Of a stretch of 64,000 nucleotides of DNA, positions 42,679 through 64,000 are shown piece after piece. The notes under the pieces were generated by a model, which saw nothing but the letters and a program-made list of their open reading frames with translations, was not told the origin of the DNA and did no database searches. The translations under genes and the position numbers were made by a program. The stretch comes from a bacterium (GTDB lineage Bacteria > Patescibacteriota > Patescibacteriia > Veblenbacterales > UBA10138): NCBI GenBank assembly GCA_020057885.1, contig JAGVEX010000015.1, positions 55,862 to 119,861 of the forward strand, read 5' to 3'. Each line of letters starts with the position of its first letter. Position 1 is the first letter of the stretch.

Positions 42679-42875
42679 ATAAATTAGAGTTAAACTAAAT
42701 TATTTTGGGCTATTGGCTACTAGCTATATGCTAATAGCTATTTAACGCCTCGGCTCTCTCCGCAAATTTTTTCGATTTACGAAGAGGAGCAGGCTTTAAA
42801 CGCCTAACGCGGTTATTGTTGTTTTTGTAACCAAATAAATGGTTAGAGCAACTAATTGCTTAGATATAACGATAA

Positions 42876-44258
42876 TTATGGTAACGGATTGTCGTCGTTC
42901 GTGATAGTACAAATAATGGCTTCGCCTTCATCAAGCGTAGCTGTACCACCGAGCACGGCTGGACACTTAATATTTCCAATAATAGATACGAAGGTGTAGC
43001 CCACGCGCCCTACCTCATTAATAGTGTGCGGAATGTTTGAATTTACCGCCACCGAGGTATTGTTTTGAACAAGGTTGCCGTCAATATTAAGGCCGAACAT
43101 AGTTGGTCCAGCGGTACCACCATTGTCATTAATCACGTTTTTTATAAGCGTGATATTACCAGGCAAGTCATTATTTACTATAGTGCAAGATTTGTTATCA
43201 CCTGCATTAAGAGTAACTTGACCAAACTGATCACAATCGGGTCCACTGAACGATGCTACATATCCCATAATACCTGTCTCGGTCACCACATAGTTACCTG
43301 GTGGTACCTGAACTGGTACGCCAGATGTAACTGGAAATGGTGTCATGTAATTATCAACAAATAATTGATAATCACCAACGACATTATTACCGCCATTATC
43401 ATTTACAATTTCTTTAGTAACTGTAATAGTTGCGAGTCGAGGTTTACCGTCGCAAGTGTAATTTGGATTGTGTCGAGCTTGTACAGCGCGGAAAGCAATA
43501 TCCATCGTCACGCCATCAGTTTGGCTTTCGTTGCCAAGCTGAGTACCGTTACAAGTAAACCCAGAACCCTGCGCTCCCAAAGGACTATCATAGTCGCCTG
43601 GTGTAACAGGATTAAGAGTCATTGTGCCATAGCACCAACCTTTGGCAATATAGTAAGTTTCGCCACCTAGCGCCGGGCCGGGTACACCGGTCCAAACGTT
43701 TGTATTGGCATCAGCCAAAACAGCTGAAAACTTTTTATCCTCACCAAATAAACTTAGGATGGTTTGCTCGCCGTCAGAAAGCAAGGTTTCGCCTTGTTCC
43801 AAAACATTGTCGCCATCATCCACCCACCAAACCATTTTAACCAAGTTGCCAAGTTCACCATCCCACGTATCATTCACGTCTTCTGGTGCGTCAACTATAA
43901 GCTCTGGTTCGGTAGATGAAATATCGTTGTTAGTTGTAAGCGACATATCCAAACACAAGTATGCGTCGTTGTTGTTAACGTGGAGAGAAATAGTATCCTC
44001 ACCCTCGTCATCTGGCTTTAGATCGGTAAAGTTGATAAGTAAGAGCCCGTTGCCTAAATCCGAAGGGCCGAAAGTAGTTATATCCGAAATCGCTCCGTTA
44101 TAGTAACTCTCGTTATCTACTTTAAGATCAATCGCGCCAGCCACAAAAACGTTACCGCTAGCTGTTTCGGTGTCGCTTAAGAAAGCGCTAGTCGCTCCAA
44201 AACCGACAACCACAGCTAAGGCTCCAATAACCGCTAAACTGAAAATTATTCTTTTCAT
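42876..44258 (-). CDS. Secreted protein with SipW-cognate signal and TasA-like N-module plus C-terminal prealbumin-fold repeats
   Basis: The N-terminus is MKRIIFSLAVIGALAVVVGFGATSAFLSDTETASGNVFVAGAIDLKVDN. C-terminal repeats include ITVTKEIVNDNGGNNVVGDYQLF...PGNYVVTETG..GY and ITLIKNVINDNGG. Confidence 0.75.
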   Translation of the reverse strand: MKRIIFSLAVIGALAVVVGFGATSAFLSDTETASGNVFVAGAIDLKVDNESYYNGAISDITTFGPSDLGNGLLLINFTDLKPDDEGEDTISLHVNNNDAYLCLDMSLTTNNDISSTEPELIVDAPEDVNDTWDGELGNLVKMVWWVDDGDNVLEQGETLLSDGEQTILSLFGEDKKFSAVLADANTNVWTGVPGPALGGETYYIAKGWCYGTMTLNPVTPGDYDSPLGAQGSGFTCNGTQLGNESQTDGVTMDIAFRAVQARHNPNYTCDGKPRLATITVTKEIVNDNGGNNVVGDYQLFVDNYMTPFPVTSGVPVQVPPGNYVVTETGIMGYVASFSGPDCDQFGQVTLNAGDNKSCTIVNNDLPGNITLIKNVINDNGGTAGPTMFGLNIDGNLVQNNTSVAVNSNIPHTINEVGRVGYTFVSIIGNIKCPAVLGGTATLDEGEAIICTITNDDNPLP

Positions 44259-44335
44259 AGCAGTGCATCTTTCCTCTTACCCTAATGCTGAAATCTAAAT
44301 AATCTCAAAATTAAGTTTGAGGAAAGTGGAGTTAG

Positions 44336-45184
44336 TTAGCGCCTGGTAGGAAGTACGCAAGTAAAGTTAGGGTTGTTTCTGGCTTGTTCAACACGGAAAG
44401 CTATGTTAGCTGTCATGGTGTCGGTCTGAGCAATGTTACCCAATCCATTACCATCGCAAGTTATGATTGCATTAGCAGTTGGTGTCGCGGCGGTTACATT
44501 CATTGTACCTGCGCACCAAGCCAAACCAATGTATCTTGTTGTATTACCTGCCAAAGGACCAGTGATGGAATTAGCTAAGGTGTAAGACTTGCCACCAAGT
44601 ACGTCGCTGGCTGGACCATAAAGGTTAGAGAATAACTGTTGCTCGCCTGCTTCCCAAATATTGTCGCCATCATCTGCCCAAGCAGTGAAGTAAATGCCTT
44701 GTGCGAGGTCACCAGTTGTGGTTCCATCGGAAGCATTTAGTACTGAGCCATCTACCAAGTCTTCAGGAGTTGTAATGCCATTGTCGTCGTTTGCAGTAAT
44801 ATCTACATCAACACAGGCATAAGCGTCGTTGCTGTCAACGTGAAGCGAGATTGTATTCTCACCAGAGTCGCCAGGCTTAACATCCAAAAAATTAAAAAAC
44901 TTTTGTGCACCAAGATCAGCTAGCTCCCAAGAACCATCGCAAGGTGTTCCGGCCTTTGGATAAGCGGCATCACCAGACCAAATATATGGATATTGACCAT
45001 CTGTAGTAGCAACACAAACATTACCATTGTAGTGTTGTTCACTATCAACAGTTAAATCGATAGCGCCAGCAGTAAAGGTGTTACCAGTGGATGTTTCAGT
45101 ATCACTGAAAAAAGCAGTGGTGCCAGCAACTACCACAGCCCCAACGGCTGCGAGAATTGCCAAGCTTAAAAGAATTTTCTTCAT
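44336..45184 (-). CDS. Secreted TasA/camelysin-like protein with SipW-cognate signal (shortest paralog, candidate major subunit)
   Basis: The N-terminus is MKKILLSLAILAAVGAVVVAGTTAFFSDTETSTGNTFTAGAIDLTVDS. It shares the core module (KFFNF.DVKPGD.GENTISLHV, WCAG, QTD...F..EQARNNPNF.C) with the other paralogs. Confidence 0.75.
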   Translation of the reverse strand: MKKILLSLAILAAVGAVVVAGTTAFFSDTETSTGNTFTAGAIDLTVDSEQHYNGNVCVATTDGQYPYIWSGDAAYPKAGTPCDGSWELADLGAQKFFNFLDVKPGDSGENTISLHVDSNDAYACVDVDITANDDNGITTPEDLVDGSVLNASDGTTTGDLAQGIYFTAWADDGDNIWEAGEQQLFSNLYGPASDVLGGKSYTLANSITGPLAGNTTRYIGLAWCAGTMNVTAATPTANAIITCDGNGLGNIAQTDTMTANIAFRVEQARNNPNFTCVLPTRR

Positions 45185-51297: not shown

Positions 51298-53520
51298 TCA
51301 ATTGGGATACATTGTTGAAAGTTTAGCTTCTGGAATTTTATGTAATATATTAGGATACGATACGGCATAAACATTAACAAAACCGCTATCGGACATTTTT
51401 TGGACTAATTTAGTACCAGGCCTAATTGTTATATTTTTGTCCATTGGCAAACTAGTAAGTGTAGAAATCGCTACGGTCTTTACATTAGAAAAATCTTTAT
51501 ACCAAGAGAAATAAGTTTCCACATTAGGAAAAAGCAAACGTTTAATACCATCAAAATAATATACGGATGGATCACCAGCCCCTTTAATCACATCACCAGC
51601 TACTATACCAAGGTTACTGCCCTGCACACTCATCATATTACCCCAAAGTGGTAAGGTAACACGTGTATTTGGTTGACTTCCACTAAAACCTATGCCAGAC
51701 ACGCCCAAGCGGTAAGCACCACTCGCCTGTCCTGATAAATCAGCTTTAATTGTCAATATTTTACTGGTATTATTGGCTACGCTAACTGGCGTTAATATAT
51801 CGGCATAAAGCCAACCATGTGTCGGATTTGAAAGATTAAGTGACGCCGCACTACCTATTAACGTAGAGTCATCAAAAATCTTTATATTTGATAAAGCTGA
51901 CAAATTTGCAGAATCAGAATTTATCTGTAAATTATTAAGAGTAACATTACCACCTGTGGCGCTTAACTTTATTCTGGTAAATGTAACGCCAGTTTGACTG
52001 GAAGGAATATTGGCTGCTGCTGGACTAGATGCATCAAGTGCTACAGATAAAGTTGATGTAGCAGTAGATAGAACAGTCATCAAATTGCCATATAGGGGAA
52101 ATGCTACATTAACGCTTGTAGGTGCATGCTCAGAATTATAACCCAATCCAATTAAACCTAACCTATATGAACCACTAGCATTAGAGCCAACATCGGCCAC
52201 TAATCTTAAAACCATAGTGGAATCCTTTTTTATAGTTTGTGGTGCAATTGAAATACTAGTCCATTTATAAGAAGGGTCTGTAAAATTCAAAGTTGATGAA
52301 CTGCCTAATAATGTAGTGCCATAATAAACGCTAATATTAGACAAGGCTGAAACATTAAGCGCGTCAGAATTAATTTGAACTGTATTTATAGAAACATCCC
52401 CACCGATAGCTGAAAATTTTATTGTAGTAAAAAGCACGTTAGTTCCCCCAGCATTTATATTGCTAGCCATAGGAGATGCTGCATCTAACACTGCGGATAA
52501 TTTTGTACTTATTGGTAAGGGCGCAAAATTGGCAATTATAGACTTATTTGCGCTAATAGAAACAGTACAAGTTAATCCTGCAACACTACTACAACCAACC
52601 CAACTTACAAATGATGATGCTGCGCTGGCTGTAGCGGTTAATGTTACTACTGATTCAGATGCAAATGAAGCGTTACAAGAAGAACCGCAATTAATTCCTG
52701 TAATTCCTGTTGGGCTACTTGTAACTAAATCCGCGTCAGTACCGTTTTTAGTAACAGTTAAAGTATAATTATTTATAACCACATTTGTAGTAGTAACAAA
52801 TGATTTAACCACACTTACAGAACTACCAACGCTACTATTAGCTATGGCGCAATAATAATACGTTGTACTAGGTAATAAACCAGTAATAATACGCGAAACT
52901 GTAATAGGACTAGATCCGGTGAAAACGCTACTCGCACTAATTTGTGACAGGTTACTACATGTTGATTGTACAGGACTATACCTAAATGCAACTGAAGTTG
53001 ATACACCATTAGGATTTACTAAGGCGCTTAGAGTTGCTGAATTAGTAGTTATGCTTGTGGCGGCATTAATGGTGACGTAAGGAAGCTCTAATGGTATGGG
53101 TACAAAATTAGCTGTCACAGCTTTATTTGCATTTAAACTTAATACGCAAGTACTAGCTGTACCAGTACAACTACCTCCCCAACCATTAAAAATACTTCCA
53201 CTTGCCGCCGTAGCGGTTAAAGTAACAACGGAATTAGCAACATAACTAACAGAACATGTAGAGCCACAATTTATACCTGTCGGTGCGCTTATGACTGCTC
53301 CAGAGCCACTTTTAGTTACTGAAATGGTATAAGAAGATGGCCTAATTATTATTGGAACATCTTCCCCTGGTGCTGTGGCAGCCGAGGCTAATTGCGTAAT
53401 CATTGCGCTATAAAACAAAATACCCATCACTAATAGACTGGCTGAACCAATAAAATGATGGGGTTTATTTAACTTAGTTAAATTATGTAGCGGAGCTACA
53501 TGATAATGCAATTTTTTCAT
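51298..53520 (-). CDS. Large secreted protein with divergent InlB B-repeat-like Cys-containing modules and FN3-like domain
   Basis: Signal/TM sequence. Repeated modules such as GINCGSTCSVSY...LTATAASGSIFNGWGGSCTGTASTC...ANF and GINCGSSCNASF...FVSWVGCSS. Confidence 0.55.
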   Translation of the reverse strand: MKKLHYHVAPLHNLTKLNKPHHFIGSASLLVMGILFYSAMITQLASAATAPGEDVPIIIRPSSYTISVTKSGSGAVISAPTGINCGSTCSVSYVANSVVTLTATAASGSIFNGWGGSCTGTASTCVLSLNANKAVTANFVPIPLELPYVTINAATSITTNSATLSALVNPNGVSTSVAFRYSPVQSTCSNLSQISASSVFTGSSPITVSRIITGLLPSTTYYYCAIANSSVGSSVSVVKSFVTTTNVVINNYTLTVTKNGTDADLVTSSPTGITGINCGSSCNASFASESVVTLTATASAASSFVSWVGCSSVAGLTCTVSISANKSIIANFAPLPISTKLSAVLDAASPMASNINAGGTNVLFTTIKFSAIGGDVSINTVQINSDALNVSALSNISVYYGTTLLGSSSTLNFTDPSYKWTSISIAPQTIKKDSTMVLRLVADVGSNASGSYRLGLIGLGYNSEHAPTSVNVAFPLYGNLMTVLSTATSTLSVALDASSPAAANIPSSQTGVTFTRIKLSATGGNVTLNNLQINSDSANLSALSNIKIFDDSTLIGSAASLNLSNPTHGWLYADILTPVSVANNTSKILTIKADLSGQASGAYRLGVSGIGFSGSQPNTRVTLPLWGNMMSVQGSNLGIVAGDVIKGAGDPSVYYFDGIKRLLFPNVETYFSWYKDFSNVKTVAISTLTSLPMDKNITIRPGTKLVQKMSDSGFVNVYAVSYPNILHKIPEAKLSTMYPN

Positions 53521-53650
53521 TTTTATTTTTCCTTTTTACTTAATATATTTAAATTATATTAAGCATTAATATTTATTTTAGGCTAATATTAGCCAATTCT
53601 ATATACATTATAGCATACAATACAAAAAAAATCAAGCCGTTTCAACAAAA

Positions 53651-53676
53651 AAACAGACTTTTTTGAAAGCCTGTTT
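53651..53676 (-). terminator. Rho-independent terminator downstream of the ferredoxin gene
   Basis: The AAACAGAC...GCCTGTTT hairpin has a T-run on the minus strand. Confidence 0.55.
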
Positions 53677-53702
53677 TTTAAATGTATTAAATTTATAAAT
53701 AA

Positions 53703-53951
53703 TTAAGGATAAATTTGTTTGCCTGTATCATCCTCAATAAAAACCGCGTTGGTCGGACAAGATTTTGCGGCCTCCAACACCATTTTTTCATCAGCCGAAA
53801 ATTTAGAAAATTCCACCCACTCGCTTGTTTTGCTGCCGTCGCTAGATTTGATCACGGCTTTACCCTCTTCATCTAACTCAAATACTTCTGGCAAAAGCGC
53901 AATGCAAGAAGCCGCGCTAATGCATAATTCTCTATCTACTCTAACTCGCAT
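53703..53951 (-). CDS. Small single-cluster ferredoxin
   Basis: 82 aa: DRELCISAASCIALLPEVFEL...AAKSCPTNAVFIED (Cys ligands C..AASC...CP). Confidence 0.65.
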   Translation of the reverse strand: MRVRVDRELCISAASCIALLPEVFELDEEGKAVIKSSDGSKTSEWVEFSKFSADEKMVLEAAKSCPTNAVFIEDDTGKQIYP

Positions 53952-54015
53952 AATAATTTATGGTTAAAAATTAATTGTTAATTTTATTGTTTTTAATTAG
54001 ATTCCTTCGTCGCCC

Positions 54016-54100
54016 GCCCAAAGCGTGCTCCTCGCAATGACATTAATGTATAATTACGAATCAATATCGTCATTGCGAACGAAGTGAAGCAATCTCTCTA
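54016..54100. promoter_or_regulatory. Extended imperfect inverted repeat (CTTCGTCGC...CGCAATGAC / GTCATTGCGAACGAAG) between the EamA gene and the ferredoxin gene
   Basis: Read directly: 9-bp and 6-bp paired arms with a 22-nt bulge. Confidence 0.3.
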
Positions 54101-54119
54101 TTCATAATTCAGTATTCAA

Positions 54120-54536
54120 CTATAAAGCAATTAAGACGGCCCCGGCGGCCATTAATATGGTACCGGCTATAACTTTAAAGGTCAAACTTTCGCCCAAAAT
54201 AAGCGCCGCTAAAACTACTGTGAACACTAAGGATAATTTATCAATTGGTGCCACCTTGGAGGCCGCTCCCACTTTAAGCGCGTAAAAATAAAACAACCAA
54301 GAAAGCGCTGTGGCAATAGCAGATAAAAATAAAAACAACCATGTCTTACTACCAATGCTTCCTAATTCATTTGTCTTACCTTGAAACAGCACAATCGCCC
54401 AAGCAAAGGCTAAAATAAAAACCGTACGAATAGCAGTGGCTAAGTTTGAATTTACATCTTTAATTCCAATTTTCGCCAAAATGGCGGTAAGCCCGGCGAA
54501 TAAAGCAGAAAGTAAAGCGGCGGTTACCCAAGACAT
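54120..54536 (-). CDS. EamA-like small transporter (DMT superfamily)
   Basis: 138 aa with 4 TM helices; N-terminus MSWVTAALLSALFAGLTAILAKIGIKDV. Confidence 0.7.
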   Translation of the reverse strand: MSWVTAALLSALFAGLTAILAKIGIKDVNSNLATAIRTVFILAFAWAIVLFQGKTNELGSIGSKTWLFLFLSAIATALSWLFYFYALKVGAASKVAPIDKLSLVFTVVLAALILGESLTFKVIAGTILMAAGAVLIAL

Positions 54537-54643
54537 AAAAATTAAATCTAAATTTCAAAATCCAAAATCCAAAACAATTAAGGATAAATTTTTTAAGAAG
54601 TGAATTTAGGACTTGTTTAAAATTAATGATTAGAAACTGTTTA

Positions 54644-56140
54644 TTATTTTATAAACACTACATTATTTTTACGAGCAGCAGCGAGTCCGAGTTGTAAACG
54701 TTCCTTACTCGCGGCATACAAAGTAAATAATTTATCGCCCTTTTTCACTTTATTGCCCCAATCGACATGTGTATGAATACCGGCGATTTTTTCGTGCGGT
54801 GCGCCCAAATTCATACAAATTTCATTAATCGCGCGATCGTGTATCAAAACAACTTTACCGGATTTTTTGGAATGAATTTCATAACGGAAAGCGCCCGTAG
54901 CAATTTCTTCTGATTTAATATTATAATTACCACCCTGCGCCTTAATAATCTCTTGCATTTTTTTCCAAGCCGCGCCATTTAACAATTGCTTTTGCGCAAT
55001 TTTTTTACCTTGTCCTTTGCGGCAATAACCCTTAAGCTCCAAAAGTTCACCAGCCAAATAAATTGATTTACGCTCTAAATCGTGCGGGCGTAATTTATGT
55101 TGCTGTAAAACGCGCAACACATCACGCGCTTCCAGCGCTGGCCCAATACCGCGTCCTATTGGCTCACGCGCCAAGGTTTTAATAACCTTTACTTTCATAT
55201 GGAACTTACGCCCAAGCCATTCAAACTTTTTCTGTAATTGATTGGCTGTGCGCATATTAGGAATTTTGGTAGTTTCGCCAATCGGCATATCAATAACCAA
55301 ATAATCCACCCCCATGGCCACTTTTTTAGCCATTATGGAAACTATCATTTTATCGTAAGGCTCAAGGGCTAACGGTCTTGAGATTTTTATAATTTTATCA
55401 TCGGCTGGGGCAATATTAAGCCCACCGCCCCACACCAAACAAGCTTTGGTTTTTTTAACTATTTCCTTAATCTGCTTCATGGAAAAACTTACCGGCGCCA
55501 ACACTTCCATCGTATCAGCAGTACCGGCTGGCGAAGTTATGGCGCGCGAAGACGTTTTGGGAATATAAATCCCGAGCGAGGCAATAATGGGAATCACCAC
55601 CATAGTTGTGCGGTTACCTGGCAAGCCGCCGACTGAATGTTTATCTACCACCTTTGTTGGCAGATCCATTTTTTCACCTGTATTGGCAATTGATTTGGCT
55701 AGATAATAAAGCTCGTCTTTGGAATACGGCTTAACAAAACCAGAGGCCACGAAATAAGTAATCTCGGGTATTGATAATTTATTTTGGGTTATATCAGAAA
55801 TAATTGAATGAATTTCCTCATAGCCCAAAGGCTTGCCCAACATTTTTTTCTTAATAGCCTGAATAGATGGTGGGCGCGATATAATAGATACTTCCACCAC
55901 GTCACCCTCCTCAATATTACGGCCGCGCCAAACCTCACGAAACAAGCCCACGCGCCCCGGCATTACTTTGGCTTTACTAGTATCAGCCGATACGACCAAT
56001 TTGGATCTATTACTCCATTTAAGCTCTATTCTATCGCCTGCCTGTATGCCTAAACTTTCGGCCTCGGCTTCATTAAGCACTGCAATAATTTCGTTGCCGG
56101 CGGAAAAATCTAATTTTTTTGACTTTAGATAAAATGACAT
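54644..56140 (-). CDS. AMP phosphorylase (thymidine phosphorylase family, archaeal DeoA-type)
   Basis: 498 aa. An N-terminal extra domain precedes the pyrimidine-nucleoside phosphorylase core (DKHSVGGLPGNRTT...SSRAITSPAGTADTMEVL). It is adjacent to an R15P isomerase. Confidence 0.7.
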   Translation of the reverse strand: MSFYLKSKKLDFSAGNEIIAVLNEAEAESLGIQAGDRIELKWSNRSKLVVSADTSKAKVMPGRVGLFREVWRGRNIEEGDVVEVSIISRPPSIQAIKKKMLGKPLGYEEIHSIISDITQNKLSIPEITYFVASGFVKPYSKDELYYLAKSIANTGEKMDLPTKVVDKHSVGGLPGNRTTMVVIPIIASLGIYIPKTSSRAITSPAGTADTMEVLAPVSFSMKQIKEIVKKTKACLVWGGGLNIAPADDKIIKISRPLALEPYDKMIVSIMAKKVAMGVDYLVIDMPIGETTKIPNMRTANQLQKKFEWLGRKFHMKVKVIKTLAREPIGRGIGPALEARDVLRVLQQHKLRPHDLERKSIYLAGELLELKGYCRKGQGKKIAQKQLLNGAAWKKMQEIIKAQGGNYNIKSEEIATGAFRYEIHSKKSGKVVLIHDRAINEICMNLGAPHEKIAGIHTHVDWGNKVKKGDKLFTLYAASKERLQLGLAAARKNNVVFIK

Positions 56141-56160
56141 AAATAAAAGCTTCGCTTTTA

Positions 56161-56175
56161 CCCCGCGGAGCGGGG
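56161..56175 (-). terminator. GC hairpin (CCCCGC-GGA-GCGGGG) between the R15P isomerase and AMP phosphorylase genes
   Basis: Read directly. Confidence 0.35.
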
Positions 56176-56268
56176 TGGTCCGCCACGGCGAACCAAAATA
56201 CTAAATTCGAAATCCCTGCCTACCGGTAGGCTGGCTAAACTCTAAACAACATATGAATAAAAAATTAA

Positions 56269-57201
56269 TTATTTAGATAGCCAAGGATAATGCTGTTTAA
56301 CTAATTTTACCACTTGCTTGGGTTTAATTATACCAAATTCACAAATAATACCAGTAATATACTTAGCAGGCACTTTATCAAAGGCATAATTTATTATTTT
56401 TGTGCCGCGTGGCGCATGCGGCCACAGCTCTTGCCGCGGGCGCAATTCAATTTTACTCTCCCCTTTCATATCTGCCTTTAAAAGTGTAGCGGCAATATAA
56501 ACTGGAATTTTAGAATCATAAGCCGCTAAAGCAATGCCAAAACTACCAATTTTATTTAACACCGACCCATCGCGTGCTATGCTATCAGCGCCCAATAAAA
56601 CTAAATTGATTTTAACATCATCCCCCGAGTGGTTAGAAACCAACCAGGCCGCTGCACTGTCGGCTACCATTGCACAGGGTATTTTAGAGTGACGCAAATG
56701 CTTGTCAGTAATATGACCTTGAAACAAAGGCCTGGTTTCGGTGTGATAAACTTTAAATCTTTTCCCCTTGCGATGCGCGGCCAACAAAACTTTTTCCGCC
56801 AATGAAGAATGGCAATGTGTAAAAATATTTCTTTTGGCGGTAAGCGCCACAACTCCGGCGTGACTTAATTTATTTTCAGCTTGTTTTAAATAAGCTTCCA
56901 ATTTAACCACCAGTTGTTCAACTAATTTATTCCAATTTGATTTATTTAAATTAACTGCTCGCTTTTTTAATTCATATACAAACCACCGACTAATATTGCG
57001 TGCCAACGGTTCGGTAGGTCTTAAATTAGCCAAGTCTTCCTGTATTTTGGCTAGACTTTTCCAATCGGCTTTGGTAGTTGGTATTTTTTCAGATTTAGCA
57101 TAATGCGACAAAGCCTGCAAAGTGGTTTGCGCTACCAGTGTTGCGCCCTGAATATGAACACTTAACAAATCCTTCTTAAAATTCTTGAGGGAGTTTGACA
57201 T
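56269..57201 (-). CDS. Ribose-1,5-bisphosphate isomerase (eIF-2B alpha/beta/delta-like, e2b2 family)
   Basis: 310 aa. The C-terminal LLGADSIARDGSVLNKIGSFGIALAAYDSKIPVYIAA is typical of the e2b2/MtnA family. Confidence 0.65.
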   Translation of the reverse strand: MSNSLKNFKKDLLSVHIQGATLVAQTTLQALSHYAKSEKIPTTKADWKSLAKIQEDLANLRPTEPLARNISRWFVYELKKRAVNLNKSNWNKLVEQLVVKLEAYLKQAENKLSHAGVVALTAKRNIFTHCHSSLAEKVLLAAHRKGKRFKVYHTETRPLFQGHITDKHLRHSKIPCAMVADSAAAWLVSNHSGDDVKINLVLLGADSIARDGSVLNKIGSFGIALAAYDSKIPVYIAATLLKADMKGESKIELRPRQELWPHAPRGTKIINYAFDKVPAKYITGIICEFGIIKPKQVVKLVKQHYPWLSK

Positions 57202-57218
57202 ATTTTTACTAAAAATAA

Positions 57219-59081
57219 TTACTCATCAAATCTAATTACTTGCCCGGGCTGCAATTTTTTAAAATTGGACTCAGCTTTGTTATTTTCTTCTGACATATGC
57301 TGATCTACCGAGCGAGCATTAAAAGAAACCGGTTTGCGAGCTAAGGCTTCTTCTAAAGAAATACTAGGTGGCGGCGTTGGCACTAGTGGCTGTGCCATGA
57401 CCAACGGACTAGCTGTTTTTTCTTCCGGTACTGGCGGTAAAGCATTTTCAACTGTCGGCAAATCAACCGGTGCTTGTGCTGGGCCTTGGGTTGCATTTGT
57501 TACCACTAACCTTGGTTTTGGTTTGGCAATTATTCCTTGTCGCACCCGTTTCATATCTTCTTTGCAATAAACCGCCCTAATGCCGTCGGGCTTAAATGGT
57601 AATTGCACCTTACGTTTGCAAACCCAGCATTCTGCCTCAAAAAGCTCCCGTTCCGGATTTAAATTCAAACGCGGTGGCTCATTGGAAGTGGTGGCCGCCC
57701 CGCGCTGTTTAAACGAAGCTGGCACATTACGATACATCATTTCTTCGGGATCAAGCGAACGAGAATCTTCGTGGGCGGATCCTTTAAACGTTTCCTCCAC
57801 GCCTGCCCAACGCAAAATTTTCTCCTCTACCACTGTTCTATTCTTAGCATAACGTTCACGTGATACTCTAATAATTTTATCGCGGTTATTAGTGCGCTGA
57901 GAAATTGGCGGTAAAGTAGTAGCGCTAAAGGCGGAACTAGTAACACCATCTATCATTAATTTTAAATAAATATGATAGTTGGGCAAAGATACTAAATCCG
58001 TCTGCATAAAAGTTGGCTCAAATTCCGGCTCTAAATATTCGGCATCTTCTGCGCCGATGCGGAATATAATCATAGTACCAACGTTGCCAAAAACTGAGGC
58101 TTTAACCTCGTCACCTAATTGCTCAATATATTGGTGAGCCATAATTAAATCCAAGCGATATTTACGCGCTTCTGACAGAATGTTGGCAAAACTTTCTGTG
58201 GCAAAATTTTGAAACTCGTCTACATAAAGAAAAAAATCTTGGCGTTCTTCTTCGGGAGTATCAATGCGGCTCATTGCCGCCAGCTGGATTTTTGTAATCA
58301 TCATAGCGCCAAGTAGCGCTGAGTTATCTTCACCCACCCTACCTTTGGACAAATCCATCAACAAAATTTTACGTCCATCCATAATTTCTCGCAAATCAAG
58401 AGTGGATTTGGATTGGCCAACAATATTGCGAATAATAGCCGAAGATAAAAATTGGCCAATTTTATTTTGGATAGGTGAAATAGCTTCCGTACGGAATTTT
58501 TCATTGTAATTTTCATATTCATCAATCCAGAAAGAACGTACCACCGGATCACTTAATTTATCCAAAACTTTTCGGCGAAAATATTTATCCACTAAAATAC
58601 GTGTAATACCAAGCAAAGTGGAGCCAGGATATTCTAAAAGCGATAATATGGCATTACGTAAAATGTATTCCAAGCGCGGCCCCCAGGAATCAGCCCAAAT
58701 TTTCTTAAACACACCAATCAAACCCGAAGCTACCAAATGACGATACCTTGGATCCACTGCCTCCAAGGGGTTAAAAGCTACTGGGTAATCAACATCCGAA
58801 GGATTAAAATACACTACGTCGTTTACGCGACTAGAAGGGATTATATCCAAAATCTTTTCCACCAAATCACCGTGCGGGTCAACTACTGCCACACCAAAAC
58901 CAGCGCGGATATCGCTCGCTATCATATTTTCAAGCATGACAGATTTACCCGTACCAGATTTACCAATTACATACATATGGCGACGGCGATCGTCCAGCTT
59001 AATACCGAATTTCCGCGATTGATTGCGAAAATTAGTTTCGGCAAAAGGAGTGATATTGTAACGTGGGGTCAACTCTTCCAT
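57219..59081 (-). CDS. FtsK/HerA-superfamily P-loop ATPase (TraD/VirD4 coupling-protein-like), soluble, with C-terminal zinc ribbon and Pro-rich tail
   Basis: Walker A HMYVIGKSGTGKS, Walker B FFLYVDEFQNF and an AHQ motif are present. The C-terminal ECWVCKRKVQLPFKPDGIRAVYCKEDMKRV is followed by a PAQAPVDLPTVENALPPVPEEK tail. Confidence 0.55.
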   Translation of the reverse strand: MEELTPRYNITPFAETNFRNQSRKFGIKLDDRRRHMYVIGKSGTGKSVMLENMIASDIRAGFGVAVVDPHGDLVEKILDIIPSSRVNDVVYFNPSDVDYPVAFNPLEAVDPRYRHLVASGLIGVFKKIWADSWGPRLEYILRNAILSLLEYPGSTLLGITRILVDKYFRRKVLDKLSDPVVRSFWIDEYENYNEKFRTEAISPIQNKIGQFLSSAIIRNIVGQSKSTLDLREIMDGRKILLMDLSKGRVGEDNSALLGAMMITKIQLAAMSRIDTPEEERQDFFLYVDEFQNFATESFANILSEARKYRLDLIMAHQYIEQLGDEVKASVFGNVGTMIIFRIGAEDAEYLEPEFEPTFMQTDLVSLPNYHIYLKLMIDGVTSSAFSATTLPPISQRTNNRDKIIRVSRERYAKNRTVVEEKILRWAGVEETFKGSAHEDSRSLDPEEMMYRNVPASFKQRGAATTSNEPPRLNLNPERELFEAECWVCKRKVQLPFKPDGIRAVYCKEDMKRVRQGIIAKPKPRLVVTNATQGPAQAPVDLPTVENALPPVPEEKTASPLVMAQPLVPTPPPSISLEEALARKPVSFNARSVDQHMSEENNKAESNFKKLQPGQVIRFDE

Positions 59082-59084
59082 AGA

Positions 59085-60494
59085 TTAATCAACAAAGGGC
59101 AAATTAGATGGCGGCCCGCCTTTGCCACCAGTTTCCGAAACAGCTTGCGCGCCAGACATGGGTTTTAAATAGCCTCCCAAAGTAGGTAAAAGAGTTGGTG
59201 GTTCAGATTTTTTGGTTTCCGTTTTTTTAACCAATGGCGCCTTCACTGTTACAACTGGGAAATGGTAAAGGGAGGCCAACTCTTCGGTATTTAAAATAAA
59301 GCCATGCCCTAATCCCCTATGAGCGCTGCGTATTTTATATGATTTAAGAATACTTTTTTGTTTGCGGTTAATACGAGATTGCTTAAGAAAATATTCAGCT
59401 TTGGTTGTTACTCGTTTACCAGGCAAAAAACCGTTCATATTTAAAGCGGTAAATTGCTGAATAGCTCCCACTACGGCCGATACTCCTCTGCCCTTTAAAA
59501 AAGTTTCACGTTTACCCCAATAAACCAATCTGAGTTTTGAGTGAAAACCAATTTTAGAAGCTTTGTGTTCAATTCCTTCTACTACAGCTTTCTCGCCAGG
59601 AGTGAGTTTGGTAATATCACGGACTATCTCTACCTCTTTACCACCACTGTATTCGTTGCCGCACCAATTTGGCTCAAAAATACCGGCAAAAGCTATTTCC
59701 ACAATTACACAAACAGTATTCAATGGTAATTCTACAAACAACCAATATATCATACCATGCCCGGAGTGTTTTTTATGTTCAACTATTTTTTTAACCTCAG
59801 CGGCGGATTCAGCTTTCCAGTGATCACTGCAAGGTGTTACTAATAATTGTAGCCAAACATCTTCGTCTGTATTAACGCGGCTTAAAATTTCCAATAAGGC
59901 CGCCATGGGATCTTTAAAATCGCCGGAAAGCGTATGCTCAAAATCGGGATAAGTGCGTAGGGGATAAGCGCTTTTTTTAGTAAGCGCAAACTCTGTGCCC
60001 CATAAATCATAAGCATCTGTATCAAAATCAAGTGGCACGCGATCTACATAATCTTCCACTTCGGTAATTTCAGCATCGGGATATTGTGCGTAAATTGAAG
60101 ATTCTATTAAATCGCGATAGTCAGCTGGTGTGCGAATTAAAAATTGTATGTAACCACCCAAGCTAACAATTTCAAAACTAAAAGATTCTTGGTGCTTGCC
60201 CTGCCACAAACGCTGGTAAATAGTACCCTTGCTATAAGTAGCGGCTAAACTAGAAAAAATTTGTTCCACCGCACGCGGACTTTGCTCGGTTTCTTTGGGT
60301 ACATCTATCGCAAGTAATACATAACGAATATTATGCTCATACTGATGCTTGCGTGAAGTAAGCCACGAAGTCCACGCTGCCCACAAGGCTGGCAAAACAG
60401 CAAAGATCCAGCCGCCATTAATGAAAATCCACCAAGCAACCGTAATCGGATCGCTGGTAGGCAAACCGCTAAGATACGTATTCAAATTTATCAT
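59085..60494 (-). CDS. Hypothetical membrane-anchored protein (partner of the ATPase)
   Basis: 469 aa; an N-terminal TM pair (WWIFINGGWIFAVLPALWAAW) is followed by a soluble domain. The 3' end abuts the ATPase gene by 3 nt. Confidence 0.45.
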   Translation of the reverse strand: MINLNTYLSGLPTSDPITVAWWIFINGGWIFAVLPALWAAWTSWLTSRKHQYEHNIRYVLLAIDVPKETEQSPRAVEQIFSSLAATYSKGTIYQRLWQGKHQESFSFEIVSLGGYIQFLIRTPADYRDLIESSIYAQYPDAEITEVEDYVDRVPLDFDTDAYDLWGTEFALTKKSAYPLRTYPDFEHTLSGDFKDPMAALLEILSRVNTDEDVWLQLLVTPCSDHWKAESAAEVKKIVEHKKHSGHGMIYWLFVELPLNTVCVIVEIAFAGIFEPNWCGNEYSGGKEVEIVRDITKLTPGEKAVVEGIEHKASKIGFHSKLRLVYWGKRETFLKGRGVSAVVGAIQQFTALNMNGFLPGKRVTTKAEYFLKQSRINRKQKSILKSYKIRSAHRGLGHGFILNTEELASLYHFPVVTVKAPLVKKTETKKSEPPTLLPTLGGYLKPMSGAQAVSETGGKGGPPSNLPFVD

Positions 60495-60496
60495 AT

Positions 60497-61633
60497 TTAT
60501 GTTTGATTGTTTGGTGTTGCCAAAGTATACCGACCATCGGGCAATCTTTGGAATTTTTGTTTATTAGTAAGTGCTAAATGAATAGTCCCCTTTTTAACTA
60601 AACGTTGTTTAAGAATATCTTCTACAATTTGGGAACGATCAAGCGGTCCTTTGGTTTTTAAAATTTCCACTAAAATATCCGCCACCACTCCAGGATTAAA
60701 ACCCCACTCTTTAAGCGCATAAATTCCGCGACCAACCAGCACATATTTTTTATCCATAATAAGTTCATTGTGCACCGTGGGCGGATAAGCCATTTTATGA
60801 TCAAATTTCTGCTCATTAACAAGTTTAGTAATTTCTCTAAAATGCAAAGGCTTACCGTGTTTTTTTAGGACCAGATAAATTTTATCATTCATGCGCTTAG
60901 GGCTAACTGTTTGCCAATGTGTTAAACCCCACTCACCAAAAGTATTGCTGCGCACGTTAACACTTAATTCTAATAGCCCCACAGCCAAACGACCGTCATT
61001 TAAACTACCGCCCAAAGGACTAGGCAAATTAGCTCGCGCTAGCTCACGCACTAATTCATCCTCTGAAATAGGGTGGCCCTTAGTGCTAATAAAATCTTGC
61101 GCGTGATTGATGATATTAGTTATAGCTTCAAGCGAAGCATTTCTTAATCGCCAACCCAAAATAAATTCTGTTTCCTCGCCGCCTAAACTTGCTACCACAT
61201 CAGTTAAAATTTCGCTTAAATAAAAATTAATAACATTCAAGCTGGCGCCATCGCCTGATTCTTGCAGTAAGTGACCAAGCTTTTCACTGGTAGCGGCACC
61301 ACTCTCGCCTTCTAAAACTTCTACCACGACTTGGCGAATCGGCCGCAACAATTCTTGGGCGCGCTTGCCTTGAACTATTTTTTGTACTGCTAATCGCTGA
61401 ATTTGGCGAATACGCTCGCGTGTTACCTGAAAAGAATTACCAATGCTTTCCAAAGTCTCCGACTCACTGCCAGAAAAACCAAAACGGCGCGCCAATACTT
61501 GCCGCTCACGCTCTCCCAACCCTTGCAAAAGTTCCGTTAATACTGCCTGCGGCCTAAAATGCTCGCGATGCGAAACCTGCTGGGTGGAGATTATTTTATC
61601 TAAAATTGATTCTTGGTCTTGATTCATAGACAC
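60497..61633 (-). CDS. Protein with N-terminal sigma-70 region-4 HTH only (no region 2) plus a 270-aa C-terminal domain of unknown function
   Basis: ERERQVLARRFGFSGSESETLESIGNSFQVTRERIRQIQRLAVQKI matches sigma-70 region 4. Confidence 0.55.
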   Translation of the reverse strand: MSMNQDQESILDKIISTQQVSHREHFRPQAVLTELLQGLGERERQVLARRFGFSGSESETLESIGNSFQVTRERIRQIQRLAVQKIVQGKRAQELLRPIRQVVVEVLEGESGAATSEKLGHLLQESGDGASLNVINFYLSEILTDVVASLGGEETEFILGWRLRNASLEAITNIINHAQDFISTKGHPISEDELVRELARANLPSPLGGSLNDGRLAVGLLELSVNVRSNTFGEWGLTHWQTVSPKRMNDKIYLVLKKHGKPLHFREITKLVNEQKFDHKMAYPPTVHNELIMDKKYVLVGRGIYALKEWGFNPGVVADILVEILKTKGPLDRSQIVEDILKQRLVKKGTIHLALTNKQKFQRLPDGRYTLATPNNQT

Positions 61634-61805
61634 AAAGATAATAGTATGGGATACTATATATTTAGTATATCATAATTATCCAATCCTGTCAATAGATAAA
61701 ATTTTCAACCAACAGGGGCAATAACTTACTTAATACCTTTTAAATTATTTTAACTTCTTGCATATACTACGACTGCCTTTCTTTATTGGAAGATAATACC
61801 GTAAT

Positions 61806-62845
61806 TCAATTAAAATTATTACGTAGGTTGTTAGATATAGAGAATCCATCACAATGCTTCAAAGCACCCAAATATGATTGCACGGATTGCTTAAAACTAT
61901 CCTCATTTAACTCACCTCGTAAAACTTCATTCTGTTTAAAAAATAACTTTTTAAATATCCTATGCTTTGTACTGGTCCTAAGCACAATATGGTAAGGCAA
62001 AACTACATAGCCTAAAAAATCTATGCCTTGACTTAGCTTACACTGTATAATCTTATTGGGGTGAAGCTCAAGTGACAAATTGTCATTCAAAAAATTCTGT
62101 ACCTTTGGTATTAGTGCATCCAATTTAATTGGATCATCATTAACCATTATAAAATCATCAGCATAGCGAAAGTAGTGTCGTACTTTTAATTCGTGTTTTA
62201 TAAATTGGTCTAATTCGTTTAAATATATGTTGGCAAAAATCTGCGAGGTCAAATTACCAATGGGTAATCCTATATTTTTTGATTGTATACCCATTAACGC
62301 CCCCCCCCCCCGACACTTCCTGGAAAACTACTAATTACCTCATCAAGTAACCAAAGTATCTGGGCATCTTTAACCCTGCTCTTTATTATATTTAATAGTT
62401 TTTGGTGATTGATGCTGTGAAAAAATCTCTTTATATCACATTTCAAAGCATAAACTGGCCGAGTGTAGTTAACACTTAATGCTCTCAAACTGTGATTTAA
62501 GTTCTGAATAGCTAAGTGAGTGCCTTTATTCAGACGAGAAGAGTAGGAATGATAAATAAACGTGGCATTAAAAACATTATCAAGGTAATCAAAAATAACG
62601 TGATGAATCAACCTATCTCTAACGCCTGCCTTGCTTATCAATCTCGGCTTAGGGTCGCAGATACGAAATGTCTGATACGGCCTGTGGCGATAGGCTTGCT
62701 CCAAAAGCTCGTTAGATAAAAAGAAAACATTATCTTCAAGATGACGTTCAAATTGAAGCACATCCATCTTACTGAGCTTGCCCTTCTTAAACTGATCCCA
62801 GGCTCTGAATAAATTTTCAGGGCTTATTAACTCTTCATAAATCAT
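61806..62845 (-). pseudogene. DGR-type reverse transcriptase, split by a frameshift in a G12 (C12 on plus strand, 62300-62311) homopolymer; a +1 G would restore a single 345-aa ORF
   Basis: ORF-A (62294-62845) has RT motifs 1-2 (PKP..G..R...RD..IHHV...SYSSR.NKGTH.A). ORF-B (61806-62294) has motifs 4-7 (GLPIGNLTSQIFANIYLNELD, YADDFIM, QGIDFLGYVV). There is no maturase or endonuclease domain. Confidence 0.8.
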
Positions 62846-63202
62846 ATGAATAATTATACCAGTACAACTGAAATACCCATCATCAAAAAATTATACGATT
62901 TGTACAAAACGTATTACGACTATCAAACCCTATTTAGCAAACGAGACAAGTACGCTCTGGGCAGTAAATGCGAACAGTATATATTTTCAACCTTTGAGCT
63001 AATACTGGCTGCCAGCAGTGCAGCTAAACAGAATAAAATGACTTTAATACAACAAGCCAATGTAAAGTTTGATACGCTTAAAGTACTATTTAGATTAGCA
63101 AAAGATTTAAAAATGTTAGATATTAAAAAATATACTGTTATTCAAGGATACCTACAGGAGATAGGACGTATGTTGGGTGGCTGGCAACGCTCACTTATAT
63201 AA
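62846..63202 (+). CDS. Avd-like four-helix-bundle protein (23S rRNA-IVS protein family), DGR accessory variability determinant candidate
   Basis: 118 aa. The helical pattern IPIIKKLYDLYKTY...ELILAASSAAKQNK...VLFRLAKDLKML...QEIGRMLGGWQRSL matches four-helix-bundle/Avd proteins. Its start codon abuts the RT start codon back-to-back (CAT|ATG). Confidence 0.65.
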   Translation: MNNYTSTTEIPIIKKLYDLYKTYYDYQTLFSKRDKYALGSKCEQYIFSTFELILAASSAAKQNKMTLIQQANVKFDTLKVLFRLAKDLKMLDIKKYTVIQGYLQEIGRMLGGWQRSLI

Positions 63203-63248
63203 GCAAAACTCCCCATAGTGGAGAGCTTTGCTAGTACCTAAAAACAAT

Positions 63249-63367
63249 CGAGAGAAGACAAGACCACCAGAGTAATTGTCATTCGCATTGCCGAGATTGC
63301 TCTTGTTGTCGAACTTGAGCTTGTCGTCATTGGCCTTCAGATAGAGCGACTTCTCAGGCTGCTGCCA
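63249..63367 (-). repeat. DGR template repeat (TR), template sense on the minus strand
   Basis: 119 nt homologous to 63749-63867. At every mismatch the plus strand has T (minus-strand A). In the VR frame it encodes AAY/AAG-rich codons (K,Y,K,N,K,K,N,K,S,N,N,N,Y). Confidence 0.85.
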
Positions 63368-63641
63368 AATTGTGCTTACATCCTCCCTTTTTCACCAGAG
63401 CCCTAAATTTTATTTTAGGTCCCTTGAATTTTATTCGGCCTCGCTAAGCCCTAGAAGTAAGCACGTAGTGTCTAGGTACACCGTATACGCTCTTGTAATC
63501 CCTGCCTGCCGTAGGCAGGCGTAAACTACAGGACTCTGATACGTTTGCGTGTTCTAGGATTTCGGCGACCCCAATCCGTAAATCGGGGTACATTAGCCTA
63601 CTCTCAAGCTTAAGTATATAGTTTTTTGATAAAAAGAAAAA

Positions 63642-63670
63642 CAGGGTTTGCGATATTTTGCAAAACCCTG
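63642..63670 (-). terminator. Hairpin (CAGGGTTTGC...GCAAAACCCTG) with a minus-strand T-run, about 75 nt downstream of VR
   Basis: Read directly; candidate target-gene terminator and DGR homing-associated stem-loop. Confidence 0.5.
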
Positions 63671-63744
63671 TTTGATATTTCTTTGAAGACCAAAGGTCAA
63701 AAGCCATTGTCCAAAGGACAAGTGGCCGAAGTCCAAAGCCCTCA

Positions 63745-64000
63745 CTACCGAGAGAAGACAAGACCACCAGAGCAACAGTCATTCGCATCGCCGAGATCGC
63801 CCTCGCCGTCGAACCTGAGCTCGTCGTCATAGGCCCCCAGACAGAGCGACCGCTCAGGCTGCTGCCATTGAAGAGCGGACAAATCATATCCTGGGGTATT
63901 TACATCACGGGCCAGTGTTTCTGTGTACATTATATGGCCGATAACTCTCTCAAAACCAGCTAAACTAATTTGTTCTGGCAGTGTTGCCATCTGCTCACGC
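63745..64000 (-). CDS. DGR target gene, 3' portion (5' end lies outside the window); the variable region encodes the C-terminal 40 aa
   Basis: The frame is open to the window edge and the stop codon is at 63745-63747. The C-terminus reads ...WQQPERSLCLGAYDDELRFDGEGDLGDANDCCSGGLVFSR. The VR (63749-63867) differs from the TR at 17 positions, all TR-adenine sites. Confidence 0.75.
   Translation of the reverse strand, partial: REQMATLPEQISLAGFERVIGHIMYTETLARDVNTPGYDLSALQWQQPERSLCLGAYDDELRFDGEGDLGDANDCCSGGLVFSR
63749..63867 (-). repeat. DGR variable repeat (VR)
   Basis: Pairs with the TR. Identity at the 3' end (minus strand, CTCTGGTGGTCTTGTCTTCTCTCG) forms an IMH-like invariant segment. Confidence 0.85.

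Follow-up and report, generated by a model that had tools for sequence, protein, structure and literature searches.

A nucleotide salvage route that incorporates CO2 is known from Thermococcus and from many CPR bacteria. In CPR it involves a RuBisCO of Form II/III, III-like or III-c (PMC5113843, Wrighton et al. 2016; PMC6389311, Jaffe et al. 2019), and in published CPR loci the RuBisCO gene lies between e2b2 and deoA (PMC6389311). The closest archaeal counterparts of the two feeder enzymes are the Thermococcus kodakarensis AMP phosphorylase (Tk-AMPpase, a TK0353-type DeoA homologue; PDB 4ga4, 4ga5 and 4ga6) and the ribose-1,5-bisphosphate (R15P) isomerases PH0208 of Pyrococcus horikoshii and TK0185 of T. 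kodakarensis (5yfj and 3a11). In haloarchaea, the R15P isomerase is followed by a ribulose-1,5-bisphosphate (RuBP) phosphatase and a ribulose-1-phosphate aldolase, without RuBisCO (PMC9700705).

We analysed a 64,000-nucleotide stretch (the window) of a Patescibacteria contig, JAGVEX010000015.1, in which a deoA homologue and an e2b2 gene are adjacent (Table 1). Both open reading frames are present exactly where the sequence-only reading had placed them, on the minus strand and with the lengths it gave. [quoted passage not shown] Both are real genes under strong purifying selection (dN/dS against the close relative L162: phosphorylase 0.021, e2b2 0.093).

Table 1 Features of the salvage locus and its surroundings (window positions)
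Feature	Position	Strand	Details
Single-cluster 4Fe-4S ferredoxin	53703..53951	-	82 aa; PF13459/PF13370; conserved downstream neighbour
EamA-family half-size membrane transporter	54120..54536	-	138 aa; PF00892, E 1.3e-23; conserved downstream neighbour
Predicted AMP (nucleoside-monophosphate) phosphorylase with extra N-terminal domain	54644..56140	-	498 aa; TIGR03327, 4ga5 match
Spacer, the ‘slot’ in which relatives carry RuBisCO	56141..56268	-	128 nt; GC-rich hairpins shortly before the phosphorylase start codon
CPR-type e2b2 protein, predicted R15P isomerase	56269..57201	-	310 aa; PF01008, active-site columns
TrwB/DUF87-type ATPase with zinc finger	57219-59081	-	Upstream block, Pfam
DUF8128 protein	59085-60494	-	Upstream block, Pfam
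sigma70_r4/HARE-HTH protein	60497-61633	-	Upstream block, Pfam

We consider it highly likely that the pair accounts for the first two steps of the CO2-incorporating AMP/nucleoside salvage (pentose bisphosphate) route. The phosphorylase would cleave nucleoside 5′-monophosphates by phosphorolysis to the free base and R15P, which the e2b2 protein would isomerize to RuBP through a Cys/Asp pair. The 204.8-kb contig very probably encodes, at another place, a Form III-like RuBisCO, which would then add CO2 and water to give two molecules of 3-phosphoglycerate, which would enter lower glycolysis. We infer the enzymatic activities, the co-transcription and the joint working of the three proteins. As in the published CPR pathway (PMC5113843, PMC6389311), the three components are probably present in one Patescibacteria genome, and deoA and e2b2 are paired. 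Unlike in the usual CPR salvage loci, RuBisCO lies outside the slot between e2b2 and deoA, and the pair is embedded in a block of sigma-like, DUF8128 and ATPase genes, followed by genes for EamA and ferredoxin.

The assignment of the 498-aa protein to the thymidine phosphorylase family was borne out by matches to all three Pfam domains of that family (PYNP_C, Glycos_transf_3 and Glycos_trans_3N). These domains are common to DeoA and pyrimidine-nucleoside phosphorylases (PyNP) and thus also fit an ordinary thymidine or pyrimidine-nucleoside phosphorylase that acts on nucleosides, and NCBI labels several close relatives ‘thymidine phosphorylase’. On the NCBIfam AMP_phos equivalog (TIGR03327, EC 2.4.2.57) the protein scores 542.3 bits and covers profile positions 2–492 of 500, a result that clears the cut-off of 535 bits by only 7 bits. 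The pyrimidine and thymidine phosphorylase models, however, give 123–210 bits against cut-offs of 269–571, including 210 bits against a cut-off of 409 for the pyrimidine-nucleoside phosphorylase model.

Structural comparison points the same way. Residues 8–495 align to residues 6–490 of Tk-AMPpase (4ga5; E 1.6e-112), a full-length match that includes the N-terminal domain of about 85 residues, and scores are 380 bits for Tk-AMPpase versus at most 124 for PyNP and thymidine phosphorylase (TP) structures. The extra N-terminal domain proposed from the sequence is present: residues 1–90 precede the pyrimidine-phosphorylase core and align to the N-terminal domain of 4ga5, whereas PyNP and TP structures align only from query residue 93–97 onwards. 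The two core motifs, HSVGGLPGNRT and KTSSRAITSPAGTAD, correspond to HSIGGVPGNKT and KTSSRAITSAAGTAD in Tk-AMPpase, and to HSTGGV-GDTTT and KMSGRGLGHTGGTID in PyNP 7m7k. Both take the AMPpase form rather than the PyNP form in this alignment, with HSxGGxPGN(K/R)T and KTSSRAITSxAGTAD common to Tk-AMPpase and the window protein. The gene is also conserved beside e2b2 and RuBisCO. With profile scores, structure scores and two motif variants all favouring AMPpase over DeoA/PyNP, we regard a nucleoside-specific phosphorylase as very unlikely, and retain AMP phosphorylase as the predicted activity of this protein, which unlike Tk-AMPpase is bacterial (Patescibacteria) and has a cut-off margin of a few bits.

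The 310-aa protein belongs to the e2b2 family, as had been proposed (PF01008 IF-2B, E 9e-55), and its translation contains the peptide cited in support of that proposal, GADSIARDGSVLNKIG. Its best NCBIfam model is the R15P isomerase equivalog TIGR00511 (EC 5.3.1.29), at 166.4 bits and below the cut-off of 314.1; we therefore file it as a CPR-type e2b2 homologue rather than as a member of the equivalog, and predict that it acts as an R15P isomerase. The sub-threshold score, together with a score only 6 bits lower on the generic eIF-2B_rel model (160 bits), would also fit a methylthioribose-1-phosphate isomerase (MtnA) or an aIF2B-like protein with no enzymatic role, and some relatives are indeed named ‘translation initiation factor eIF-2B’ or ‘S-methyl-5-thioribose-1-phosphate isomerase’. 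The MtnA models, however, score lower and far below their cut-offs (TIGR00512, 136.6 bits versus 279). The best PDB matches are the R15P isomerases of Pyrococcus (122 bits) and Thermococcus (110 bits), with MtnA at 84 bits or less. Within the IF-2B family the protein sits on a Patescibacteria/DPANN branch, and it is closest to archaeal R15P isomerases. In a neighbour-joining tree it clusters with RuBisCO-linked CPR and archaeal e2b2 proteins and with the Pyrococcus R15P isomerase, apart from two MtnA proteins, a split without bootstrap values. These two references, from Bacillus and Klebsiella, were verified by context, as their genes adjoin mtnK.

Active-site residues further separate these possibilities. 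Contacts with RuBP were read from the Pyrococcus crystal structure (PH0208; PMC5789824), in which the catalytic Cys135 and Asp204 correspond to Cys133 and Asp202 of the Thermococcus enzyme (PMC5789824, PMC6423476). The window protein keeps both, within THCHS and GADS, along with Arg65, Ser137, Gln166, Asn214, Lys215 and Lys240. Asn214 and Lys215 bind the sugar. Ser137 and Lys240 are the 5-phosphate ligands, which tell a bisphosphate substrate from methylthioribose-1-phosphate; the MtnA pair is Ala/Thr and Thr, and all CPR e2b2 proteins examined keep both except L061 (Ala at 137). MtnA is of the same Pfam family as the 310-aa protein and has the catalytic Cys/Asp and the RPT and NK motifs in common with it, but has R-G-A-P, C-N-(A/T)-G and Thr240 where the window protein has Q-G-A-T, C-H-S-S and Lys240. 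The presence of the catalytic Cys and Asp, in an alignment that left out regulatory eIF2B subunits, argues against a purely regulatory protein. Unlike MtnA genes, the e2b2 gene has no methionine-salvage neighbours: neither mtnK nor any other methionine-salvage gene was found among the approximately 50 window proteins scanned, and e2b2 is always paired with AMPpase. We therefore judge an MtnA or aIF2B-like identity to be extremely improbable, and return to the predicted R15P isomerase, which both the tree and the 5-phosphate ligands absent from MtnA favour.

Some features set this predicted isomerase apart from PH0208 and TK0185. Of the 1-phosphate ligands, Arg65, Gln166 and Lys215 are kept and Arg22 is replaced by Gln, as in all CPR and several DPANN and Asgard homologues examined, RuBisCO-adjacent ones included; in addition, Lys138 is replaced by Ser and Glu237 by Thr. 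The AMP activator site at the PH0208 subunit interface (Arg124, Arg190, Lys194, Asn209, Arg229, Trp231 and Asp290; PMC5789824) is not conserved in the 310-aa protein, which has Ala, Ala, Ser, Asp, Lys, Pro and Thr instead, and is likewise lacking across the CPR e2b2 homologues examined. These differences are common to every CPR e2b2 protein examined, those beside RuBisCO included, and the CPR-type isomerase may be regulated unlike the archaeal enzyme. The e2b2 proteins from the e2b2–RuBisCO–AMPpase clusters L082 and L085 have exactly this active-site pattern. The idea that the change of Arg22 to Gln and other active-site changes mark lineages without RuBisCO in the slot was rejected, as the pattern recurs in e2b2 proteins encoded beside RuBisCO.

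The archaeal-type AMP salvage pair put forward by the sequence-only reading is thus supported on both of the points at which it had said beforehand that it could fail: the phosphorylase sides with AMPpases, and the e2b2 protein with R15P isomerases. To our knowledge, no enzyme of the CPR AMPpase clade or of the CPR e2b2 clade has been assayed.

That reading had also held that no RuBisCO gene lies in the window. Consistent with this, the PS00157 or relaxed active-site motif occurs in none of the six frames, and tblastn of the window with 11 RuBisCOs returned only noise. It had left RuBisCO as either elsewhere or absent; the records favour the first option. P0370, a Form III-like RuBisCO of 484 aa, has a record that gives one contig of 204,809 bp from NCBI, JGI and Logan. 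The records of the AMPpase, e2b2 protein and ATPase of the window give the same length and sources, and the contig-size profile of P0370 matches that of the window phosphorylase. On the basis of equal contig size and sources, the third enzyme is very probably encoded on the contig of the window, outside the window itself. P0370 has both RuBisCO Pfam domains (PF02788 and PF00016) and matches form III RuBisCO structures (E 1e-84). The motifs AAESSTGTWT, GNIAG, KPKVG, FIKDDE, HAHRAMH, LHIG, SGGLHPG and GGGVLGHP are readable, which we take to be the RuBisCO active-site motifs, carbamylated Lys included. On the NCBIfam type III RuBisCO equivalog P0370 scores 391 bits, below the cut-off of 497. It is a member of the P0257 cluster; P0257 itself shares 76% identity with the L082 query, and further matches in the L082 RuBisCO search bear the name ‘Form III-like’.

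In a second record of P0370 (the Logan copy L171, from a sibling run), the RuBisCO gene adjoins genes for RNase J and PPIase, and RuBisCO sits in a separate RNase J–SLT–PPIase–RuBisCO–PycTM block. Relatives carry the RuBisCO block near PGA_cap and a zinc-finger gene; the window has only those two genes in common with them (17869-19396), and the block itself is absent. A link by tetranucleotide composition between the RuBisCO contig L169 and the sister strain L162 (correlation 0.98) was dropped because the unrelated locus L082 also gives 0.95–0.97.

The distance between RuBisCO and the pair raises the question of whether the pair feeds a RuBisCO-independent route, such as the haloarchaeal non-carboxylating pentose bisphosphate pathway, or another use of R15P. 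RuBisCO is not linked to the pair here, and none lies within 10 kb of it in the related loci L162–L165; a RuBisCO-free downstream route does exist in haloarchaea (PMC9700705), and deoA and e2b2 have been argued to predate RuBisCO in CPR (Jaffe et al., PMC6389311). Against such a route, what looks like a bona fide RuBisCO is on record for a contig of equal size and sources, the e2b2 active site does not differ from that of RuBisCO-linked relatives, and a Pfam scan of the approximately 50 window proteins found no PRK, HAD phosphatase, aldolase (FucA type included) or ribose-1-phosphate kinase. We consider a RuBisCO-independent route improbable and favour salvage through the Form III-like RuBisCO.

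The genomic context was compared across 80 loci from a GTDB scan with the AMPpase alignment, among the listed matches of which none is closer than 58% identity. At least 12 related loci (L002, L004, L007, L039, L053, L070, L082–L085, L113 and L123) have the RuBisCO gene directly between those for e2b2 and the phosphorylase, whereas here and in L162–L165 e2b2 adjoins AMPpase. The spacer that occupies the slot in the window has a predicted RNA fold of −40.5 kcal/mol (z = −2.66). Its hairpin segments occur once in the window and are missing from the 73-nt spacer of L162; in L163 and L164 the spacer measures 0–10 nt. Neither a motif scan nor tblastn found a RuBisCO remnant in the spacer or elsewhere in the window. 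The hairpin-rich spacer could uncouple the transcription of e2b2 and the phosphorylase. Scans of positions 53400-61900 for promoters and terminators gave counts no higher than in shuffled sequence, and tRNA and Rfam scans of the window were empty.

Downstream of the pair, the EamA gene follows the phosphorylase by 1–51 nt in L162–L165 (85–98% identity) and, among the loci compared, is found only in those without RuBisCO in the slot. The ferredoxin gene lies downstream in L162–L165 and immediately after the phosphorylase in L082. The EamA half-transporter and the ferredoxin may be functional accessories of the pathway, for example in the export of released bases. The upstream block, on the same strand as e2b2, ends 17 nt before it and recurs in the same gene order in L004, L082, L085, L120, L123 and L162–L165; we regard this block as genomic context, outside the salvage pathway.

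The histories of the genes differ. Only the gene for AMP phosphorylase sides with the lineage in which RuBisCO fills the slot; every flanking gene tested sides with the other lineage. This discordance suggests, with fairly good support, that the phosphorylase gene was replaced singly, the donor being a neighbouring CPR lineage. RuBisCO may have moved to, or been acquired at, the separate RNase J/PPIase locus. A stronger reading would treat the whole as a remodelled module rather than a plain archaeal copy, with deoA replaced, RuBisCO placed at the RNase J/PPIase locus and EamA and ferredoxin as accessories; we think this rather unlikely.

The salvage pathway in CPR has been in the literature since 2016, and the locus is an ordinary, already annotated case of it: as the pathway is published and the proteins are rightly named in JGI and NCBI, the locus adds no new biology. 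The details that it adds are a RuBisCO unlinked from its two feeder enzymes, a variable RuBisCO position and a separate history of the phosphorylase. Between close lineages, RuBisCO occupies the slot between e2b2 and deoA in some and a PPIase-linked block in others. An unlinked and shifting RuBisCO and a distinct phosphorylase history accord with published work that depicts RuBisCO as a mobile gene, and a phosphorylase history apart from that of its neighbours qualifies the published view of vertical deoA inheritance in CPR bacteria. Through the salvage pathway, these metabolically minimal bacteria can convert nucleotides that they scavenge to 3-phosphoglycerate, and from it gain ATP.

The window contains two minus-strand open reading frames of 498 and 310 amino acids, separated by 128 nt, as described in the sequence-only reading, and the peptide GADSIARDGSVLNKIG that it quoted is present in the 310-aa translation. 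The window has a GC content of 35-43% and encodes ribosomal proteins, glycosyltransferases, aminoacyl-tRNA synthetases, a sortase, and surface proteins that are large and rich in repeats. Almost all close homologues of the two proteins belong to metagenome-assembled genomes of Patescibacteria (CPR), the nearest named groups being Kerfeldbacteria and Veblenbacteria, and sequences identical to both have already been released on a contig of 204,809 bp that is found in NCBI, JGI and Logan.

Coordinates of the features discussed
Feature	Position	Strand	Remark
AMP phosphorylase gene	54644-56140	-	498 aa
Intergenic spacer	56141-56268		palindrome and hairpins
e2b2 gene	56269-57201	-	310 aa
Block upstream of e2b2	57219-61633		three genes
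Tyrosine recombinase	3086-4054		phage integrase family
NUDIX hydrolases	10787-11791, 23724-24131		one fused
PGA_cap and zinc-finger genes	17869-19396		
Glycosyltransferase/flippase cluster	19911-23671		
Sortase and surface-protein cluster	32212-45184		
Diversity-generating retroelement	61806-63990		
Reverse transcriptase, first ORF	62294-62845	-	overlaps second ORF
Reverse transcriptase, second ORF	61806-62294	-	contains YADD
bAvd	62846-63202	+	part of retroelement
124-nt repeat pair	63244-63367, 63744-63867		part of retroelement

The longer protein has the three Pfam domains of the thymidine/pyrimidine phosphorylase family. It exceeds the cut-off of the curated NCBIfam equivalog AMP_phos (542.3 bits; cut-off, 535) and those of the archaeal-type phosphorylase models, whereas pyrimidine and thymidine phosphorylase models give 123-210 bits, far under their cut-offs. 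In a comparison with proteins of solved structure, residues 8-495, which include the additional N-terminal domain, align with the AMP phosphorylase of Thermococcus kodakarensis (4ga5; E = 1.6e-112); pyrimidine-nucleoside and thymidine phosphorylases of the ordinary type reach at most 124 bits and align only from residue 93. Two core motifs, HSVGGLPGNRT and KTSSRAITSPAGTAD, have the AMP phosphorylase form and differ from HSTGGV-GDTTT and KMSGRGLGHTGGTID of pyrimidine-nucleoside phosphorylases. The protein thus qualifies as a member of the AMP phosphorylase family rather than as a DeoA, and what had been observed and proposed for the pair was right.

The shorter protein, e2b2, is a full-length member of PF01008. 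Its best NCBIfam model is the ribose-1,5-bisphosphate (R15P) isomerase equivalog, for which its 166 bits fall below the cut-off of 314; the generic eIF-2B_rel and MtnA models give 160 and 137 bits, respectively. Because the protein lies outside this equivalog by its curated definition, we examined the active-site residues. Crystal structures of Pyrococcus PH0208 define contacts with the 1-phosphate (Arg22, Arg65, Gln166 and Lys215), the 5-phosphate (Ser137, Lys240 and backbone amides) and the sugar (Asp204, Asn214 and Lys215), with catalysis by Cys135 and Asp204 (PMC5789824, PMC6423476). Aligned with MAFFT, the window protein retains every one of these residues except Arg22, which is Gln. This substitution is general in CPR homologues and occurs in several archaeal ones; proteins encoded directly beside RuBisCO have it too, so it probably does not mark a loss of activity here.

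Two MtnA references, encoded by genes adjoining mtnK in Bacillus velezensis and Klebsiella, have a C-N-(A/T)-G motif and Thr at the Lys240 position. By contrast, the window protein and nearly all CPR e2b2 proteins examined have C-H-S and Lys240 (the exception, at locus L061, has Ala at position 137); with Ser137 and Lys240, the side chains expected for the second phosphate are present. In a neighbour-joining tree of a larger set, built without bootstrapping, the protein falls within a CPR clade that holds RuBisCO-adjacent members, and this clade joins the Pyrococcus enzyme and DPANN/archaeal e2b2 proteins and is separate from both MtnA references. Because none of the aligned CPR homologues conserves the site at which AMP activates the Pyrococcus enzyme, their regulation probably differs. 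Although it lies outside the strict equivalog definition, the protein is best seen as an e2b2 homologue of CPR type, very probably with R15P isomerase activity.

We compared the loci that encode AMP phosphorylase homologues in JGI metagenomes and GTDB genomes, supplemented by exact-protein look-ups. The conserved order is SecDF, sigma70_r4/HARE-HTH, DUF8128, a TrwB/DUF87 ATPase with a zinc finger, e2b2, RuBisCO (variable), AMP phosphorylase, EamA (variable) and ferredoxin. RuBisCO lies between e2b2 and AMP phosphorylase in at least 12 loci, L002, L004, L007, L039, L053, L070, L082-L085, L113 and L123, in agreement with the arrangement reported for CPR by Jaffe et al. 2019 (PMC6389311). This slot is empty, with the two genes directly adjoining, in the window and in L162, L163 and L164/L165 (identity to the window for e2b2 and AMP phosphorylase: 86% and 97%, 59% and 67%, and 62% and 69%, respectively). 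None of these loci has a RuBisCO within 10 kb either side of the pair, and all have a gene for a 138-aa EamA transporter after AMP phosphorylase. Many other CPR loci have AMP phosphorylase without either e2b2 or RuBisCO nearby. The block upstream of e2b2 (sigma70_r4/HARE-HTH, DUF8128 and the ATPase, whose C-terminus carries a treble-clef zinc finger) occupies the same position in divergent Patescibacteria (L004, L082, L085, L123 and L162-L165).

Six-frame motif and protein-versus-DNA searches found nothing resembling RuBisCO in the 64-kb window, as the sequence-only reading had stated; of its two options for the gene, elsewhere or absent, the first is favoured. A protein-collection search with the enzyme of L082, the nearest relative with RuBisCO in the slot, returned Form III-like enzymes, including those on contigs of the L082 clade, and none on a contig of 204,809 bp among cluster representatives. 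In three relatives (a MAG of Kerfeldbacteria, a contig of the L162 sample and a Parcubacteria-type cluster), this RuBisCO is encoded elsewhere, the gene order there being RNase J, SLT, a 530-aa protein, PPIase, RuBisCO and PycTM. Listing cluster members yielded P0370, a 484-aa protein named ribulose-bisphosphate carboxylase large chain and recorded on a 204,809-bp contig from NCBI, JGI and Logan, figures identical to those for the window's proteins. P0370 and the window's AMP phosphorylase also share a contig-size profile (one of 5-10 kb, one of 0.2-1 Mb), and the Logan copy of P0370 has the RNase J-PPIase context. P0370 contains the two RuBisCO domains as well as the motifs of the active site, and it matches form III structures (E = 1e-84). 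Its score is under the NCBIfam type III equivalog cut-off, as expected of the divergent Form III-like class. We consider it highly likely that this RuBisCO is encoded on the contig that carries the window, beyond the window's limits. Haloarchaea use RuBP without RuBisCO (PMC9700705), but a comparable route here is unlikely because P0370 is recorded.

The history of the AMP phosphorylase gene appears to differ from that of its neighbours. We compared pairwise identities and neighbour-joining bootstraps (50 replicates) for five genes from the same taxa. For AMP phosphorylase, the window and its sister strain L162 group with the clade that has RuBisCO in the slot (L082 and the contigs of P0131, P0134 and P0135) in 50/50 replicates, whereas they group with the empty-slot clade (L163, L164 and allies) for e2b2 (47/50), the ATPase (49/50), DUF8128 (48/50) and the sigma-like protein (50/50). 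The window's AMP phosphorylase is 83% identical to that of L082 and nearer the in-slot clade across its whole length; its EamA is of the native type (85-88% identity to L163/L164). The simplest reading of these trees, which hold few taxa, is that the AMP phosphorylase gene alone would have been replaced before the lineages of the window and of L162 diverged; they suggest a source lineage with RuBisCO between e2b2 and AMP phosphorylase.

Against L162, dS is 0.6-1.0 across all seven block genes and dN/dS is 0.021 for AMP phosphorylase and 0.093 for e2b2, indicating strong purifying selection on both. The e2b2 gene starts 17 nt past the ATPase gene. Consensus promoter and terminator scans performed no better than on shuffled sequence, so we infer co-transcription of the block only from spacing and synteny. 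The spacer upstream of AMP phosphorylase is 128 nt long with GC-rich hairpins, 73 nt in L162 without them, and 0-10 nt in other relatives. Its window-specific insertions, absent in L162 and without a second copy elsewhere in the window, comprise a perfect palindrome, GCCTACCGGTAGGC, and a run of three GC-rich hairpins (fold z = -2.66) that end just ahead of the start codon. These insertions may act as an attenuator or a terminator, or may be the scar of an insertion.

Other parts of the window have features of their own. The genes for PGA_cap and a small zinc-finger protein share synteny with the edge of the Kerfeldbacteria MAG's RuBisCO block (compared with L168 and L170), and PriA-Def-Fmt adjoins this block in another relative; in the window, a different glycosyltransferase/flippase cluster replaces the block (GT2, Zip, PycTM, RuBisCO, PPIase, SLT and RNase J). 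The reverse transcriptase of the retroelement is split at a Gly-rich stretch (GSVGGGGR), as it also is in the independent Logan contig L001. Mismatches in the repeat pair all fall on T of the first copy (plus strand; A on the minus strand), an adenine-specific TR-to-VR pattern, and the VR lies at the 3' terminus of an ORF on the minus strand whose start may fall beyond the window end. The sortase gene of the pilus- or adhesin-like cluster precedes very large secreted proteins of 908 and 906 aa, which contain internal repeats of 270-594 nt; the cluster also has paralogous SpaA/TSP3-type surface proteins (repeat families D1-D6 and D8-D10). The tyrosine recombinase adjoins an MFS transporter and several ORFs without a Pfam match, and may mark the edge of a mobile element.

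One of the two NUDIX hydrolases has a phosphoesterase of the LigT/2',5'-RNA-ligase type fused to it. Such enzymes can yield nucleoside monophosphates and might in this way supply the AMP phosphorylase. Both genes of the pair are already annotated as salvage enzymes in a known pathway, and the pair adds one more example of the nucleotide-salvage pathway already described for CPR bacteria (PMC5113843, PMC6389311).
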